DNA of 64,000 nt from an uncultured Actinomycetes bacterium. Lineage in GTDB: Bacteria; Actinomycetota; Acidimicrobiia; Acidimicrobiales; JACDEA01. Position numbers and translations under genes: made by a program. The stretch covers positions 52,908-116,907 of the forward strand of contig CAVUMI010000005.1 of assembly GCA_963742585.1 (NCBI GenBank), in the 5' to 3' direction. Of this stretch, positions 20,753-49,165 are shown piece by piece. The stretch's first letter is position 1. Each line of letters starts with the position of its first letter. Under the pieces are notes generated by a model, which searched no databases, was not told the DNA's origin, and worked only from the letters and a program-made list of their open reading frames with translations.

Positions 20753-21371
20753 TCATCGCGCGTCGCGCCACATGGCGTATAGGGAGGGACCGTCCGGGAG
20801 CGGGATCTCGCGGGTGAAAGAGAAGCCGAGCCGCTCGTAAAGGGCGCGGTTCCGGAGTGACGTCGCTTCGGTGTATGCGGCCTCGCCGTTTTCGTCGGCC
20901 GCAGCGAGCACGTCGCGGAGCAGCGTGGCCCCGATGCCGCGGCTCTGAAGCGGCGGGTCGGTGGCAAGGAACTGCAAGTACCAGTGCGGGTCCTGTGGGT
21001 AGCACCCTCGAACGCCTCGACGATCTGCTGAAGGCGCTGCGCGGCGCCGTCGTCGATCACTTCGAGACAGCGGGCCACCATTGCTTCCTCGTCATCAGGT
21101 TGCATGAGCGGTGCGCCTGGTCGGGCCCAGATGGCGACACGGCGGCGGCGGCGGCGGTGCTGGCGACGCGGGTCGCGTCGTGCGGAGCGTAGGCGTCGAT
21201 ATACGCGTCGAATACCGCAGGCAGGGCCGTGGCGCGAGCGACGGGGTTCGGGATCCACCATTCGAACACGGGATCGTTCTGGAACGCGGCGCTGAGGACG
21301 CGGACAGCTTCGGTCCTGGTGGCCTTCGTTACGTCGGTAACAGCGGTCAGGTTGTCGTTGGTGATGGTCAT
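20753..21371 (-). pseudogene. GNAT N-acetyltransferase with two frameshifts
   Basis: There are three consecutive frame segments: MTITNDNLTAV...RVASTAAAAAV, then AIWARPGAPLMQPDDEEAMVARCLEV...VEAFEG, then YPQDPHWYLQFLATDPPLQSRGIGATLL...YERLGF. The first shift lies inside a (GCC)n run near 21135, the second near 20998. Confidence 0.65.
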
Positions 21372-24060: not shown

Positions 24061-24200
24061 GTGAAGCCCAAGCACCCGCCGCCGTGGTTCGTGCACACGG
24101 CCTGGCGCATTCATCGCGCGCTGTACCGGCTCAGTGGCGGTCGATTCCTGTGGACCACGTCGAACACGCGCGGCTGGGGCGCGCTGCGCCTCACCACGCC
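24061..24200 (+). pseudogene. Possible N-terminal fragment of an F420-dependent DDN-like (PF04075-type) reductase
   Basis: PPWFVHTAWRIHRALYRLSGGRFLWTTSNTRGWGALRLTT resembles the N-terminus of deazaflavin-dependent nitroreductase-family proteins. The similarity then ends. Confidence 0.3.
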
Positions 24201-24206
24201 GAGGCC

Positions 24207-25013
24207 ATGGCCCGCGACGAGGAGATCATCGTGTGGTGGGCCAGCAATGAGTCCTTCAACGGTTTCCTGCGCGGCCTGAAGTACTGGCGCTACGAAAACG
24301 ACCCAGACTTCGGCGACGGCTCGGCCGCCCGCATCCACTCACGCCGCCAGCTGTTCGCCAAGAAGCGCATCAACGGGATGCTGGCCGGCCACTTCGATCT
24401 GGACCCCCTCGGCGGGGAGATCTGGCTGGGCGAGCTGCTGCGCGTCGAGCACCAGCTCTTCGAGGCCGACTGGGCCGAGGCCCGAGACCGTCTGGGTGAG
24501 GACCCGACGGTCAGCGACCTGGCTCGCACCGCGGCCCAGCGCCGGGCCGACGCCATGGTCGAGATGGCCAAGCGATCGGCGGCGATGCCCGCCGATGCGC
24601 AGAAGCCGGCACCGCTGTTCAGCGTGTTCGTCGGGTGGGAGACATTCCACGGCATGTTGTGCCGCCTGGGCCGGGGCGACGCGGTCGAGCCGGGGGCGCT
24701 TGCCCCGTGGCTGGAGGAGGCCTGGATCGAACGCGTCGTCTTCGACGGGCCGTGGCGCGTCATCGACGTCGGCGCCCAGCGCCGGTTCTTTACCGGTGCC
24801 ACCCGTCGCGCCGTCGAGCTGCGCGACCAGGAGTGCTTCCACGACTTCTGCGAGGTGCCCGCCGTCGACGCCCAGATCGATCACATCGTGCCGGCGGCCT
24901 TCGGCGGCCCCACGATCCAGGAGAACGGCCGGGTGGCGTGCGGCCCCCACAACCGGGCCCGGCACACAACGAGTGGGCTCAGTGGACGAGGCCCATCTTC
25001 GCGGTCTCCTTGA
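24207..25013 (+). pseudogene. DUF222/HNH endonuclease (13E12-repeat-like), N-terminally truncated copy
   Basis: ...RRADAMVEMAKRS...RFFTGATRRAVELRDQECFHDFCEVPAVDAQIDHIVPAAFGGPTIQENGRVACGPHNR is the HNH module. The DUF222 N-terminal ~150 aa are missing compared with the 45715 copy. Confidence 0.6.
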
Positions 25014-44365: not shown

Positions 44366-44752
44366 TCACGACGCGGCGGCCGGTTGGAACAGCTCGATCA
44401 GGTTCCCCGACGGGTCAACGGCGAGAACCTGTGCGCCGCCGGGACCGGTCACGACTTCGTTGCGGAACCGAACTCCCTCGTCGGTGAGGCGGGCGATCTC
44501 GCGGTCGAGGTCATCGACGATGAGATGGATGCGGTTCCAACCGCCGGGGCCGGGTCGTTCCCCGTCGGTCATCGCCTGGCCGGCCGAGCTGCGCGGACCT
44601 GACAGCAGCAGCCGCAGGTTGCCTCGAGTCGCGTCCGCAAACGCCGGACTCGAGATTCCGACGGTGAAGCCGAAGTGGCGGGTGTAGAAGTCGACGGACG
44701 CGGCGACGTCGTCGACCAGGTAGCGAACATTCACTGTCTCGGTGTCAACCAT
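44366..44752 (-). CDS. VOC/glyoxalase-family protein
   Basis: VRYLVDDVAASVDFYTRHFGF...NRIHLIVDDLD...VDPSGNLIELFQ. Confidence 0.75.
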   Translation of the reverse strand: MVDTETVNVRYLVDDVAASVDFYTRHFGFTVGISSPAFADATRGNLRLLLSGPRSSAGQAMTDGERPGPGGWNRIHLIVDDLDREIARLTDEGVRFRNEVVTGPGGAQVLAVDPSGNLIELFQPAAAS

Positions 44753-45518
44753 GGTGAGTCCTTTCCACTGGTCGGGTTCGGAGGTCAGCGAGCAGCAGCG
44801 CCACGCGGTCCTCGATCTCGTCCGCGGTCTGTTGGAAGGCGGCGTGCCTGGTGTAGAGGGTGCCGTCTGCGGCGGCGGGGTCGGCCATGCTCCAGTGGGC
44901 GGCGACCGGCGCTCCCGAGAATGTTGGGCAGACCTCGCGCACCTTGTCGCACAGCGTGATGACGCGGTCGAATCGGTTGCGAGTGAAGCGGGTCAGCGAC
45001 TTCGTCGGGCGCCCGGAGATGTCGATGCCGCGCTCTGCCATTACTCGTACCGCATTCGGATGCAGCGGCTTCGGATGGCTGCCCGCGCTGCGGGCCTCGA
45101 TGGTGCCTGCCGAACGGTGCTCGACGAGGGCTTCGGCGATCTGGGAGCGGGCGCTGTTTCCGGTGCACAGGAACAGCAGTCGCGGTCGCCCGCGACGTGG
45201 CTCGACGTCGTCTCGTGGGGCGGGCATGAGCGAGAGCCCCGGATGGAGCGAGAGGCCTGCCGCTCCGAGGAGGTCCTGACAACGGAACAGATCGGCCCGG
45301 TAGTAGACGTCGCGGCCGTCGGCCGAGCTGCGGCGGGCGCTGACAATGCCGGCGCGTCGGAGCTCGGCCAGGTGGTACGAGACCAGGTTCTGCGGCTTAC
45401 CTGTCAGCAGCACCAGCTCGCCGACCCGGCGATCGCTTCGACCGAGCTCGACGACCAGCTGCCACCGCAACGGATCGCTGAGCAGCCCCAGGATCTCCGG
45501 CGGCTGTAGAGCTTCCAT
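44745..45518 (-). CDS. ArsR/SmtB HTH regulator fused to an LMW-PTP-type arsenate reductase domain
   Basis: The N-terminus is LSDPLRWQLVVELGRSDRRVGELVLLTGKPQNLVSYHLAELRRAGIV. The C-terminus is LLFLCTGNSARSQIAEAL (CX5R P-loop) followed by RVITLCD. Confidence 0.8.
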   Translation of the reverse strand: MEALQPPEILGLLSDPLRWQLVVELGRSDRRVGELVLLTGKPQNLVSYHLAELRRAGIVSARRSSADGRDVYYRADLFRCQDLLGAAGLSLHPGLSLMPAPRDDVEPRRGRPRLLFLCTGNSARSQIAEALVEHRSAGTIEARSAGSHPKPLHPNAVRVMAERGIDISGRPTKSLTRFTRNRFDRVITLCDKVREVCPTFSGAPVAAHWSMADPAAADGTLYTRHAAFQQTADEIEDRVALLLADLRTRPVERTHHG

Positions 45519-45519
45519 G

Positions 45520-45570
45520 GATTCACATTACATCAGAATAGATTGATGCATTGTAAATTGATGTAATCCG
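45520..45570. promoter_or_regulatory. AT-rich imperfect inverted repeat directly upstream of the ArsR-ArsC gene (operator candidate)
   Basis: GGATT..ATTACATCA (45528..45536) - N23 - TGATGTAAT (45560..45568)..AATCC. The spacer contains an internal direct repeat, ATTGATG x2. Confidence 0.45.
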
Positions 45571-45619
45571 GGAGGTGAAGCCGCCCGCGCAATTCGCAAG
45601 AGAAATGGTCGATTTGCTC

Positions 45620-45649
45620 TTGACCGGGTCGAACATATGTTCGTATAGT
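45620..45649 (+). promoter_or_regulatory. SigA-type promoter (TTGACC-N18-TATAGT) with a perfect LexA/Cheo SOS box in the spacer
   Basis: TTGACC is at 45620..45625 and TATAGT at 45644..45649. CGAACATATGTTCG at 45630..45643 is a perfect 14-bp palindrome. The promoter lies about 65 bp upstream of the DUF222-HNH start. Confidence 0.6.
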
Positions 45650-45714
45650 GGGGGAAGCAGATATCGGGTGACTACTTCCCCCTATGACAGTCCCCTCCGA
45701 GTCCGGAGGATGGC

Positions 45715-46847
45715 GTGCTGGCAACGCTGCAGAGCATCACCAAGGAGTTGGACGAGCTTCTGAGCGAGCTCGATCCTTCGGCCCTGCACGCCAGTGACGC
45801 CGTGAAACTGTTGGAGGAGTCAACCGCGATCGAAAAGCGGGCGGTGGCCATCAGGACACTCGTGGCCGACCGCGCCGCCGACAGCAGCGACTGGACCCGC
45901 AACGGTCATCGCTCGCCGGAGGAATGGCTGGCGGCCAAGACCGGCACCAGCTTCGGCCAGGCCCGATCGACGCTGGAGACCTCGGCCAAGCTCGAGGAGC
46001 TGCCCAAGACGTCAGACGAGTTGCGTCGCGGTCGCCTTTCGGCAACCCAACTCAACGAGATCGGCCCAGCGGCCACGCCGGAAAACGAGGAGCGGCTGCT
46101 GGGCGCAGCCAAGAAGGAGAGCTTCAAGGGGCTCAAGGGCACCTGTGCCAAGGAGAAGGCCAAGGCCCGCTCGGTCGATGACGAGGCCGCCCGCCACGCG
46201 CGTATCCACAAGGAGCGCCACCACCGGAGCTGGACCGATGCAGAAGGTGGCTACTGCTACTCGGGCCGCAACACCGCGATGGCCGGCGCCCGGTTCGACG
46301 CGGCGCTCGCCGCGGAGACCGAGAAGGTCTTCAAGGCCGCCCATGCCGAGGGCCGCCGTGAGAGCTCCGAGGCCTATAGAGCCGATGCGCTGCTGAACCT
46401 CATCACCTCAGGCGGGGCCAACGTCGATTCCACCGTGGTCATCCGGGTCGATGACTCAGCGCTGCGCGACGGCGAGGGCACAGCTGAGACGCCCACCGGG
46501 CCGATCCCGGTACGGGAGGCCATCGGGGCCATCCTGGCCGGGGCCTTCGTCAAGGTGCTGGCCACAAACGGCGTCGATGTCTCAAGGTGGCCCATCCGGG
46601 TCGTCACCGGCCGGCGACGCTCGATACCGCCATCTTCGAGCGTGACGGCTATCGCTGTGTGCGTCCGGGGTGCTCATCGGCCCATCGCCTGCAGGTGCAC
46701 CACTACCGCATCGACTACGGCAAGAAGGGGCCAACCGCCTACTGGAACCTGGCCACGCTGTGTTCCTTCGACCACGACCTCATCACCTACGGCGGTCACC
46801 GCCTCGAGGGTGGGCCCGGTGCGTGGGCGTGGCGCGGTCCGCCGTAG
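45715..46847 (+). pseudogene. DUF222/HNH endonuclease (13E12-repeat-like), full length but frameshifted near 46585
   Basis: The DUF222 N-terminus (LDELLSELDPSALHASDAVKLLEE...) runs in the 45715 frame. The HNH module (ATLDTAIFERDGYRCVRPGCSSAHRLQVHHYRIDYGKKGPTAYWNLATLCSFDHDLI) continues in the 46587 frame. Confidence 0.7.
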
Positions 46848-46906
46848 TCAGGGCGCCGGAACCCCCCCGCTGGTCACGCCAACTGGGCGCGGCGCCATAC
46901 TCGGGG

Positions 46907-49165
46907 ATGGAACGCGGAGAGTTTGCCGGGACGATCGGCCGGTACCACTGGCAGTCTGAGCCGTGGTGGCCGGAGGAGCCGCGTCCGCCCGATGGCGCGC
47001 CCAACGTGTTGCTCGTCGTCCTCGACGACGTCGGCTTCGCCCAGCTCGGTTGTTACGGCTCCGACATCGATACGCCGAACCTCGACACGCTCGCGGCCGG
47101 CGGTCTCCGGTACACCAACTTCCACACGACGGCGCTTTGTTCGCCGACCCGTGCGTGCGTCCTGACCGGCCGCAACCATCACGCGGTCGGGATGGGCCGC
47201 ATCGTCGACCTCGCCATGGGATTTCCCGGCTACGACGCGCGCATCCCGCGCACCACACCGTTGTTACCGGCCTTGCTGACACCACACGGGTACGCGGCCT
47301 ACGCGGTTGGAAAGTGGCACCTCACGCCCGAGGCCGAGGAACACATGGGCGCACGCCGCGACCGCTGGCCGCTGGGCCGCGGCTTTGAGCGGTTCTACGG
47401 ATTCTTCCCGGGCGAGACCCACCAGTTCGTCCCCGCGCTCATTCATGACAACCACCGTGTCGACCCGCCGGGCAGCTACGAGGACGGCTACCACCTCACC
47501 GCCGATCTCGTCGACCACGCCATCGAGTACGTCGAGGATCTCCGCAACGTCGACCTCGACAAGCCGTGGCTCCTCTACCTCGCAACCGGCGCCTGCCACT
47601 CGCCGCACCAGTCACCCGCGGGCTGGGTCGACCGCTACCGCGGCCGCTTTGACGACGGATGGGACGCATGCCGCGAGCGCGTCATCGGTCGGCAGAAAGC
47701 CAACGGCACCGTCCCGCCACATACCGAGCTTTCGCCCCGTCCTGACTGGGTGCCGGCGTGGGATTCGCTCTCCGACACCGAGCGACGCGTGTATGCCCGA
47801 TACATGGAGGCGTTCGCCGCGTACCTCTCCCACACCGACCACGAGGTCGGCCGGCTGCTGACGCGACTGCGCGAGCTGGATGAGCTCGACAACACACTGG
47901 TAATCGTGCTCTCCGACAACGGCGCGTCCTCCGAAGGCGGACCCGTGGGGTCGCTCAACGACGCGCGCGCATGGAACGTCCTGCCCCGCACGGTCGAGGA
48001 AGCGGCGGAGCGAATTGACGAGATCGGTGGCCCGCGCATCCACAACAACTATCCGTGGGGTTGGACCGTCGCCGGCAACACGCCGTTCCGTCGCTGGAAG
48101 CGCGAAACACACGAGGGTGGCGTGGCCGACCCGTTGATCCTCCACTGGCCGCGGCGCGTCGCGGCGGCGGCAGGGACCCGCCAGCAGTACGTGCACGCGA
48201 TCGACATCGTCCCGACCGTCCTCGAACTCATCGGCGTCGCCGCCCCCACCGATCTCGACGGCCTGAGCTTCGCCTACACGTTCGACGACGCGGGCGCCGC
48301 CGAGCGGCACACCACGCAGTACTACGAGATGTTCGGCTGCCGCGCGCTCTATGACAGCGGGTGGAAGGCTGTCACCTACCACGAGATCCAGAGTGAGGAA
48401 CCGGGCCTCGAGGACGCGCCGTGGGAGCTGTACGACCTCCGGGCCGATCCTTCGGAGTGCCACAACCTCGCGGCGGCAGAGCCGGAACGACTGGCCAGGA
48501 TGATCGACCGGTGGTGGGTCGAAGCCGAAGCCAACGGCGTGCTACCGATCGACAACCGGCCCTTCTCCGAGATGGTCTTTGGTCGACCGACCGGCGTCCG
48601 TCACCGCGACCGCTACACCTACTGGCCCAATCGCGCGCCGGTGCCCGAGGCGGTCGCGGTCAATGTGCGGGGACGGCCGCACACCGTCACCGCGCACATC
48701 ACCGTTGTGCCTGACGCCGCCACGCCGATGGCTGGCGCCCTCGCGGTTCAAGGCTCAGTGCTGGGCGGCTGGTCGTTCCACCTGCTGGGTGACGGCCGGC
48801 TGGTCTACGTGCACAACCTCTCGGGCTGGCGTTCGTACCGGGTCGAGGCGCCCGTTTCCGCCGACGGACGACTGGCGCCGGGAGATCACACGCTGTCGAT
48901 GCGCTTCACCGGTCCCGCGGTTGACCTGTTGGTCGACAACGCCGTGATCGGCCAAGGGACCGTCGACCGGACGGTCTGGAGCAAGTTCTCGATCACTGGC
49001 GCGGGCCTCACCGCCGGCTGGGCGGCCGACTTCTCGCCCGCGGACGAGGACTACCGCGGGCGTTTCGAGTTCACCGGCGTACTTCATCGTGTCGAGATCG
49101 ACGTGGCCGGCGACCCGATCATCGATCCGGCGTCTGAAGCCGCCGACGCCATCGCTTCGCAGTAG
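46907..49165 (+). CDS. Arylsulfatase (type I, formylglycine-dependent)
   Basis: Contains PNVLLVVLDDVGF, the sulfatase signature LCSPTRACVLTGRNHH, and GKWHL. 752 aa. Confidence 0.85.
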   Translation: MERGEFAGTIGRYHWQSEPWWPEEPRPPDGAPNVLLVVLDDVGFAQLGCYGSDIDTPNLDTLAAGGLRYTNFHTTALCSPTRACVLTGRNHHAVGMGRIVDLAMGFPGYDARIPRTTPLLPALLTPHGYAAYAVGKWHLTPEAEEHMGARRDRWPLGRGFERFYGFFPGETHQFVPALIHDNHRVDPPGSYEDGYHLTADLVDHAIEYVEDLRNVDLDKPWLLYLATGACHSPHQSPAGWVDRYRGRFDDGWDACRERVIGRQKANGTVPPHTELSPRPDWVPAWDSLSDTERRVYARYMEAFAAYLSHTDHEVGRLLTRLRELDELDNTLVIVLSDNGASSEGGPVGSLNDARAWNVLPRTVEEAAERIDEIGGPRIHNNYPWGWTVAGNTPFRRWKRETHEGGVADPLILHWPRRVAAAAGTRQQYVHAIDIVPTVLELIGVAAPTDLDGLSFAYTFDDAGAAERHTTQYYEMFGCRALYDSGWKAVTYHEIQSEEPGLEDAPWELYDLRADPSECHNLAAAEPERLARMIDRWWVEAEANGVLPIDNRPFSEMVFGRPTGVRHRDRYTYWPNRAPVPEAVAVNVRGRPHTVTAHITVVPDAATPMAGALAVQGSVLGGWSFHLLGDGRLVYVHNLSGWRSYRVEAPVSADGRLAPGDHTLSMRFTGPAVDLLVDNAVIGQGTVDRTVWSKFSITGAGLTAGWAADFSPADEDYRGRFEFTGVLHRVEIDVAGDPIIDPASEAADAIASQ

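Follow-up and report, generated by a model that had tools for sequence, protein, structure and literature searches.

Why should a perfect palindrome of the kind bound by LexA lie in the promoter of a nuclease gene whose reading frame, as deposited, is broken? The question is raised by positions 45620 to 46847 of a 64,000-nucleotide stretch of DNA from an uncultured bacterium of the order Acidimicrobiales; this whole stretch is referred to as the window. Here a 14-bp palindrome precedes a gene encoding a DUF222 domain and, in a neighbouring frame, an HNH nuclease domain. We predict, with a probability of about 0.8, that the palindrome is a LexA operator and belongs to the core promoter of a DUF222-HNH cassette that is present in multiple copies.

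The palindrome and its promoter

The core promoter of the gene has three elements:

45620 to 45625, plus strand: -35 hexamer TTGACC, found by a promoter scan; TTGAC(A) stands at the same place in 15 related promoters, and the homology between same-genome paralogues begins here.
45630 to 45643, strandless: predicted LexA (SOS or Cheo-type) box CGAACATATGTTCG, from the palindrome, the family alignment and its occurrence at imuA'.
45644 to 45649, plus strand: -10 hexamer TATAGT, found by the promoter scan; A..A.T is invariant in the family alignment (A2, described below).

The 14 bp of CGAACATATGTTCG form a perfect 7+7 palindrome that fits the Cheo-type consensus CGAACRNRYGTTYG. With its flanks (TCGAACATATGTTCGT) it agrees with 11 of the 12 specified bases of TCGAAC-N4-GTTCGA, the consensus quoted for the mycobacterial SOS box (PMC3381160). 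The promoter consists of TTGACC, an 18-nt spacer and TATAGT; it has 10 of 12 matches in a consensus scan that returned two promoter-like sites in 2.2 kb against 0.1 expected. The palindrome occupies the spacer and touches the -10 hexamer, whose predicted end lies 65 nt 5' of GTG 45715. This GTG is the first start codon of the downstream frame and is preceded, at a distance of 5 bases, by GGAGG (45705-45709). An initial annotation of the window had described both the perfect palindrome with its Cheo and mycobacterial SOS core and its place in the spacer of a TTGACC-N18-TATAGT promoter about 65 bp before the gene, and both descriptions hold.

The core GAAC-N4-GTTC occurs once in the window against 0.98 expected, which is not significant by itself, and CGAAC-N4-GTTCG with up to one mismatch occurs nine times against 5.3 expected. 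The exact form of the latter occurs once in the 64 kb, at 45630-45643, and the exact 14-mer is expected 0.10 times when up to two mismatches are allowed. Because a sequence match alone is weak evidence, the case for the box rests on position and conservation. Every other site in the window that resembles the box with at most two mismatches was judged by its position, and no further SOS site was found among them; the one that adjoins the start of an open reading frame (ORF), at 21263, falls within a longer coding frame.

For this purpose, the sequence 5' of the gene was read in the 21 copies that have a complete 5' end, one of which is the window copy. In 15 of them TTGAC(A) is followed by CGAAC-N4-GT(T/A/G)CG, which ends 0-3 nt from a TAnAAT-like -10. 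Eight related loci have another class of promoter. The 15 box-bearing promoters, which come from several metagenome-assembled genomes (MAGs) and belong to genes whose proteins are 55-68% identical to the window protein, make up alignment A2. Its only conserved non-coding blocks are the -35, CGAAC-N4-GT(T/A/G)CG, the -10, the leader sequence ACTTCCCC and the Shine-Dalgarno (SD) sequence, and its invariant columns are the half-sites CG.AC and GT, the A..A.T of the -10, and ACTTCCCC. The 4-nt centre of the box and the remaining non-coding DNA are variable, with a mean column identity of 47%. Such a pattern, judged from the alignment, is typical of a palindromic operator to which a protein binds and not of recent common descent. 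A scan for TCGAAC-N4-GTTCGA with up to one mismatch in 207 kb (the window plus 30 loci) gave 13 matches, ten of them 70-91 nt 5' of a DUF222-HNH start, and every exact CGAAC-N4-GTTCG in 43 loci lies either in a DUF222-HNH promoter or at the start of imuA'.

The imuA'-imuB-dnaE2 cassette is a classical LexA target in Actinomycetota. In one Acidimicrobiales MAG (locus L028), a divergent operon beside the DUF222-HNH gene has the box CGAACATACGTTCG at its start (1726-1741 of that locus). The first gene of this operon encodes ImuA' (NCBIfam repair_Rv3395c, E = 4e-44, 150 bits against a cutoff of 65); the second ORF has weak DNA polymerase IV similarity (E = 8e-6, 25 bits against a cutoff of 371) and, from its position, would be ImuB-like. 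Five further imuA' loci were taken from the protein search, several from records named Acidimicrobiales. Of these distinct loci, four have CGAACATATGTTCG unchanged; in them the box encloses the ATG, and a sequence resembling a -10 stands just 5'. The fifth has CGTACATATGTTCG. The 14-mer of the window is thus present at imuA' in four of six distinct Acidimicrobiales-type loci, and the other two have one-base variants. The initial annotation had reasoned that a lack of the box at other SOS genes would speak against LexA, and imuA' of the related Acidimicrobiales-type genomes proves to have it or a one-base variant. In the Acidimicrobiales-type genomes (L028, L034, L035-L041) the arrangement at imuA' is CGAACAT-ATG-TTCG with the -10-like element immediately 5', and the mRNA appears to be leaderless. 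The half-sites equal the SOS boxes defined experimentally in M. tuberculosis (PMC3381160) and Streptomyces (PMC9380542).

The predicted repression by LexA through promoter occlusion is well supported because of the position of the box, its conservation in the family and the identical 14-mer at imuA'. In undamaged cells, a LexA dimer on the box would cover the spacer and abut the -10, and RNA polymerase would be excluded. RecA-stimulated self-cleavage of LexA is the established SOS pathway, and by this route DNA damage would free the promoter. The transcript would begin near 45655 and have a leader of about 59 nt. In it, the pairing of the SD sequence with an upstream CCUCC, together with CUUCCCC 40 nt 5' of a weak GTG, would presumably act as a second brake, at translation. 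Translation from GTG 45715 would then give the DUF222 domain and an out-of-frame tail, with no HNH nuclease domain.

Several points weigh against a working LexA operator at this site. Since the gene is frameshifted, selection may have ceased to maintain the operator here. Many related copies have a degenerate right half-site (GTACG, GTGCG, GTTTG), so that some of them may be regulated weakly or no longer at all. A metagenome scan, judged uninformative, gave three distant ImuA' relatives (45-49% identity), and none of them had a box. There is no lexA or recA gene in the window or in the related loci, and the motif of the source organism's own LexA is predicted from its relatives. Finally, the fold of the window leader is no more stable than that of shuffled sequence (z = 0.54).

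The nuclease gene and the rival explanations

The gene downstream is in two parts:

45715 to 46587, plus strand: DUF222 part of the nuclease gene, with a GTG start; Pfam DUF222, 86-89% identity to homologues P0001-P0003.
46587 to 46847, plus strand: HNH part, in the neighbouring frame, an ORF of 86 codons with its stop at 46845-46847.

The frame-1 ORF (45715-46959) matches Pfam DUF222 (PF02720) with E = 3e-10 and 40.3-41.7 bits against a cutoff of 24.4. Frame 1 ends ...VDVSR and the next frame goes on VAHPGRHRPATL. The two frames overlap at base 46587, which is common to both, and therefore one G of an AGG-GTG junction is missing (AGGTG). As the initial annotation had noticed, the gene is frameshifted; the deposited window sequence has no uninterrupted frame through DUF222 and HNH, with a 1-nt deletion near 46587. 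The rebuilt protein of 377 aa aligns end to end and without gaps to the intact 377-aa homologues P0001-P0003 at 86-89% identity, and residues 292-377 of P0001 match 46587-46844 with 96.5% identity (tblastn). Programmed frameshifting was rejected, as all the homologues are single ORFs and the site is no slippery heptamer.

The HNH matches are weak, and the assignment draws on several sources. Across 110 homologues, C315, C320, H330 and C350, the residues for zinc binding and catalysis, do not vary, and N345 hardly does. The Pfam HNH match, at 13.8-17.1 bits, falls under the cutoff of 21.4; a PHROG HNH family matches paralogue P0001 with E = 7e-6, and a profile search of PDB sequences returned only the HNH regions of McrA and IscB. 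In a confident AlphaFold model of the intact P0001 (predicted local distance difference test 89, predicted template modelling score 0.75), the N-terminal 300 residues are mostly helical and are followed by a small beta-beta-alpha HNH unit. Foldseek found no significant neighbour of this model in the PDB; the weak local matches were to a ParB DNA-binding domain (helix-turn-helix-like, E = 0.1) and to the HNH of IscB. PADLOC gave no defence-system match for the gene.

The frameshift is real in the deposited assembly, because the 414-aa frameshifted product is present in the protein collection (P0004) from the same 284,511-bp source contig. Since only one G of a run is lost, an assembly error could be the cause; otherwise, the product of the 45715 frame is probably inactive. 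This leads to the first rival explanation, that the gene is a fully functional SOS-induced nuclease gene, that the missing G is a homopolymer sequencing or assembly error, and that an intact 377-aa protein is made. We consider this possible, although the odds are clearly on the other side. The lesion indeed affects only one base of a run of G, neither the promoter nor the operator has a defect, and the HNH segment has kept its 96.5% identity to P0001 with all of its catalytic and zinc residues. In addition, low-coverage MAG copies (L012, L020, L023) have apparent frameshifts, as assembly noise would give. However, P0004 was recorded from the same contig with the deletion in the deposited assembly, the other paralogues on the contig are intact, so the assembly is not error-prone everywhere, and pseudogenes are common in repeat families. 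Measured against the 377-aa consensus, L012, L020 and L023 stop early or change frame, and they could be either pseudogenes or products of error in low-coverage assemblies.

The second rival explanation depends on how the copies are built. All of the named homologues are from Acidimicrobiales or unclassified Actinomycetota MAGs and none is mycobacterial. P0001, P0121 and P0004 are on the same 284,511-bp contig, so the source contig has at least three copies of the family, and those other than P0004 are intact. Related MAGs have several copies per genome (for example, six loci in SMAG_U10132), and many copies lie at contig ends. Same-genome paralogues are 77-97% similar in DNA from the -35 hexamer as far as the stop codon, and not beyond these limits (groups L001/L002/L013/L018/L019/L022, L008/L023, L014/L016 and L004/L020); therefore, the repeated unit is the promoter, leader and ORF, about 1.2 kb. 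No terminal repeats or shared flanks were seen at the paralogue boundaries, no neighbouring genes are conserved across the copies, which lie in unrelated intergenic sites, and no relatives were found in viral contigs. In the window the cassette is placed between unrelated housekeeping-type genes, with a glyoxalase/bleomycin-resistance-fold gene (44366-44752, minus strand) and a large sulfatase gene (46907-49165, plus strand) in its flanks.

Units that are copied whole bring their promoter with them, and in a recent copy the box would still be perfect even if nothing selected for it. Accordingly, the box could be an inherited relic in front of a dead gene, with a promoter that is silent or irrelevant, and serve at most as a decoy for LexA. 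We regard this as unlikely. The gene is frameshifted and its protein is 86-89% identical to intact paralogues, but this explanation contests the usefulness of the site and not the binding of LexA; moreover, a truncated DUF222-only product could still function, and the frameshift is possibly an artefact.

These two explanations bear on the phrase in the initial annotation, an SOS-wired selfish or repeat-family nuclease in decay. The SOS wiring is very probable, whereas the decay hangs on one missing G that may be an assembly error. The repeat-family part is borne out by the multi-copy promoter-to-stop units. That the family is selfish is plausible, no more; neither machinery for transposition or homing, nor terminal repeats, nor a link to phages was found for the cassette.

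A third explanation is that the palindrome is the operator of some other regulator, such as the divergent ArsR-family protein or a family-specific repressor, and that its likeness to a LexA site is coincidental. The divergent neighbour, 112 bp away, is a gene for a fusion of an ArsR helix-turn-helix domain and a low-molecular-weight phosphatase (ArsC-like; 44745-45518, minus strand), and M. smegmatis has an HNH nuclease gene whose promoter is bound by a regulator of the ArsR family (PMC9416677). Many family promoters also have an unrelated palindrome, TACA-N4-TGTA, which points to additional regulators. We nevertheless find this explanation highly improbable, since the box is conserved in copies that have no ArsR neighbour, imuA', a canonical LexA target, has the same 14-mer at loci with unrelated surroundings, and the half-sites are those of the actinobacterial SOS box established by experiment (PMC3381160, PMC9380542). 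Furthermore, the ArsR gene has an AT-rich inverted repeat of its own by its start, at 45527-45567. As a conserved partner of the nuclease the ArsR gene was rejected, because no homologue lies beside any other copy.

The AT-rich region 45527-45567, directly 5' of the fusion gene, contains a perfect 9-nt inverted repeat (ATTACATCA/TGATGTAAT, 23 nt apart) plus a direct repeat (TAGATTGATG/TAAATTGATG), and a minus-strand promoter-like site (45579-45550) is in the same region. This region is probably the operator of the ArsR-type regulator. One half-site in it, ATTACAT, resembles the TACA-N4-TGTA palindrome of the other DUF222-HNH promoters.

The last explanation, a chance palindrome with no function, has in its favour that the core GAAC-N4-GTTC is expected about once per window, but it is effectively refuted by the comparative data, as the 14-mer is expected only 0.1 times even with two mismatches, is placed exactly in a promoter spacer and has the same element at the same position in 14 other copies.

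The leader, the second promoter class and the truncated gene

Between the promoter and the start codon are three further features:

45656 to 45714, plus strand: predicted 5' untranslated leader of about 59 nt, its start placed about 7 nt after the -10 from the position of the promoter.
45674 to 45682, plus strand: conserved C-rich leader element ACTTCCCCC, with the core ACTTCCCC invariant in A2.
45694 to 45709, plus strand: predicted hairpin CCUCCG-AGUC-CGGAGG, in which the SD sequence GGAGG (45705-45709) is paired with an upstream anti-SD; from the centroid fold.

CTTCCCC is present in all 21 copies (the window and L001-L023), 37-43 nt 5' of the start codon and in both promoter classes, after two mis-set starts were corrected. 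In 12 of 19 copies CUUCCCC is the loop of a 4-8 bp hairpin with stems that differ yet are complementary, for example GUUCUC/GAGAAC and ACGCA/UGCGU. The natural flanks fold better than swapped ones (mean -2.9 versus -1.0 kcal/mol), and none of 2000 permutations reached the observed mean. There are only about three independent stem types, and the stem is absent from the window copy; the hairpin reading of these sequences is suggestive only. The CCUCC...GGAGG pairing can be drawn by eye in most of the related leaders and appears in many RNAfold minimum-free-energy folds; its bases are invariant, hence no covariation signal can be read from them. RNAalifold found no consensus structure in a MAFFT alignment of 19 leaders, and Rfam had no family matching the intergenic region and leader. 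The start codons in the leaders examined are GTG or TTG, never ATG. As far as sequence and predicted folds can indicate, the leader is a probable translational brake on a potentially toxic nuclease. In a distant DUF222-HNH subfamily (L024, L026, L027, L030) there are about 120 nt from promoter to start and a near-identical leader with two hairpins, UCCUGC-ACUG-GCAGGA and GAGGCA-GCGC-AUGCCUC. These copies are too alike for covariation, and theirs may be another structured 5' leader.

In eight loci (L010, L014-L017, L025, L028 and L042) the LexA-box promoter is replaced by TGT(T/C)ACAC, 8 nt (CCCYTCTG) and TAnnGT, an arrangement that was found nowhere else in the related loci and not in the window. 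A mycobacterial promoter type known as RecA-NDp has the consensus tTGTCRgtg - 8 nt - TAnnnT (PMC5656591), and no such sequence is present upstream of the window gene. In L042 and L028 the start codon comes 6-7 nt after the -10 and the mRNA looks leaderless.

The second palindrome, TACA-N4-TGTA, extends up to AATTACA-TCGT-TGTAATT and is at operator positions in many promoters of the family. It lies right after the -10 in L001, L004, L006, L007, L008, L009, L012, L019, L020 and L022 and within the -35/-10 spacer in L024, L026, L027 and L030; in some promoters it is in tandem with the LexA box, and it is absent from the window promoter. Its placement suggests the site of a further repressor. Many copies (L004, L009, L011, L020, L023 and others) also have small AT-centred palindromes 15-35 nt 5' of the -35 or overlapping it, for example GGAGAAATCTCC and, at 45597-45622 of the window, CAAGAGAAA/TTGCTCTTG. 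Their sequences differ and their form is alike; an UP-like element, an additional site for protein binding and a preference in where the cassettes insert are possible readings.

One more gene of this type is present in the window:

24201 to 25013, plus strand: 5'-truncated DUF222-HNH gene of a different subfamily, from tblastn, BLASTP and Pfam.

The ORF at 24207-25013 (P0243) has 1,855 homologues, mostly DUF222(-HNH) proteins of about 377-383 aa. Residues 119-373 of its nearest relative P0244 (85%) match 24201-24965, and residues 93-373 of P0245 (70%) match 24123-24965 (tblastn). The N-termini of the two relatives found nothing in any frame upstream of these matches, and about 92-118 N-terminal residues are missing. 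The initial annotation had taken this ORF for a second copy of the main gene that had lost its 5' end and its box. The truncation is correct; however, the ORF is not a copy of the main gene, since BLASTP between the two products gives E = 0.098 and the Pfam DUF222 and HNH matches are below threshold. Nor is the loss of a box supported: what the ORF has lost is its 5' end, with any promoter that belonged to it. No LexA-type box was found upstream of 24201-25013, and the nearest intact relative (L042, 85%) uses a RecA-NDp-like leaderless promoter, TTGTTACAC-8nt-TACCCT (general form TGTTACAC-8nt-TAnnnT), 7 bases 5' of GTG. In L043, which is more distantly related, TCGAACAGGTGTACGA and the -10 overlap.

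Comparison with known systems

Locally, the consequence of these results is small, because the window copy is probably inactive: there would be one well-defined candidate LexA site before a probably dead copy of the gene. Their wider interest comes from comparison. Free-standing HNH homing endonuclease genes resemble the cassette in being compact units of promoter and HNH ORF in many copies. They differ in that the DUF222-HNH cassette lies in unrelated intergenic sites, with no intron, intein, phage context or recognisable target, and in that the N-terminal 300 residues of the window family are a DUF222 helical domain with a weak ParB-helix-turn-helix-like match.

MSMEG_1275, an HNH nuclease of M. 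smegmatis, is lethal when over-expressed, is linked to the DNA-damage response and has a promoter bound by the ArsR-family protein MSMEG_6762 (PMC9416677). The similarity is that both are actinobacterial HNH nucleases and that the gene divergent from the window copy is also of the ArsR family. However, nothing shows a DUF222 domain in MSMEG_1275, the ArsR neighbour is not conserved beside the other copies, and no ArsR-type site was found in the window promoter itself.

The imuA'-imuB(-dnaE2) cassette, a canonical SOS target in Actinomycetota, has the identical 14-mer CGAACATATGTTCG. Its box overlaps the start codon, with the -10 just 5' and seemingly no leader, whereas the box in the window is in the spacer and is followed by a leader of about 59 nt. 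The RecA-NDp/PafBC promoters (PMC5656591) share their layout and a TGTCR-like core with the eight related copies of the second class. The last three bases of the motif are CAC instead of gtg, and the motif is not in the window. A dependence on PafBC would be putative.

In M. tuberculosis, 6 of the 25 LexA peaks found in vivo by chromatin immunoprecipitation sequencing are at 13E12-family genes, and the REP13E12 (DUF222) genes under LexA are Rv0515, Rv0336, Rv1702c, Rv2100, Rv1588c and Rv0095c (PMC3381160). The initial annotation was thus right that 13E12-repeat genes of M. tuberculosis are among those with a LexA box. The family there is split into members with LexA peaks and members with a RecA-independent RecA-NDp promoter (PMC3381160). 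Both families are multi-copy, gene-sized DUF222 repeats whose promoters include a TCGAAC-N4-GTTCGA-type SOS box, and both the LexA and the RecA-NDp classes also occur among the Acidimicrobiales-type relatives. The differences are the lineage, a link that runs through the shared Pfam family and the literature and not through direct sequence comparison, and the fact that binding and induction were shown in M. tuberculosis but are predicted here, where the window copy is frameshifted. To our knowledge, an invariant CUUCCCC leader has not been described for the mycobacterial 13E12 genes.

LexA control of 13E12/DUF222 genes is already established in M. tuberculosis, where it has been a hitherto unexplained oddity of the SOS regulon; what is new is the lineage and a clearer regulatory architecture of the cassette. 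The same wiring, the same promoter position and the same LexA/RecA-NDp split in a distant lineage argue that damage induction is ancestral and selected and not a mycobacterial accident, and the parallel with M. tuberculosis suggests, by analogy, that the damage-inducibility of the DUF222 family is ancient.

A broader proposal, which we offer as a speculation with the odds against it, is that DUF222-HNH genes are autonomous promoter-to-stop cassettes with their own damage wiring (a LexA box or a RecA-NDp-like activator site) that predates the split of the Acidimicrobiia and the mycobacteria, plus a structured leader (CUUCCCC loop, SD hairpin, GTG or TTG start) and, in some, TACA-N4-TGTA. The leader would then be an undescribed cis-regulatory RNA, and the gene would be a tightly double-locked, damage-triggered nuclease and no passive repeat. 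If true, the role of such a nuclease could be damage-induced self-propagation, gene conversion, or suicide or abortive defence. Apart from this proposal, the comparison supplies a likely SOS box for the Acidimicrobiales, which are uncultured and unstudied in this respect, and it gives the DUF222 repeats of both lineages, still uncharacterised, a comparative handle on their role.

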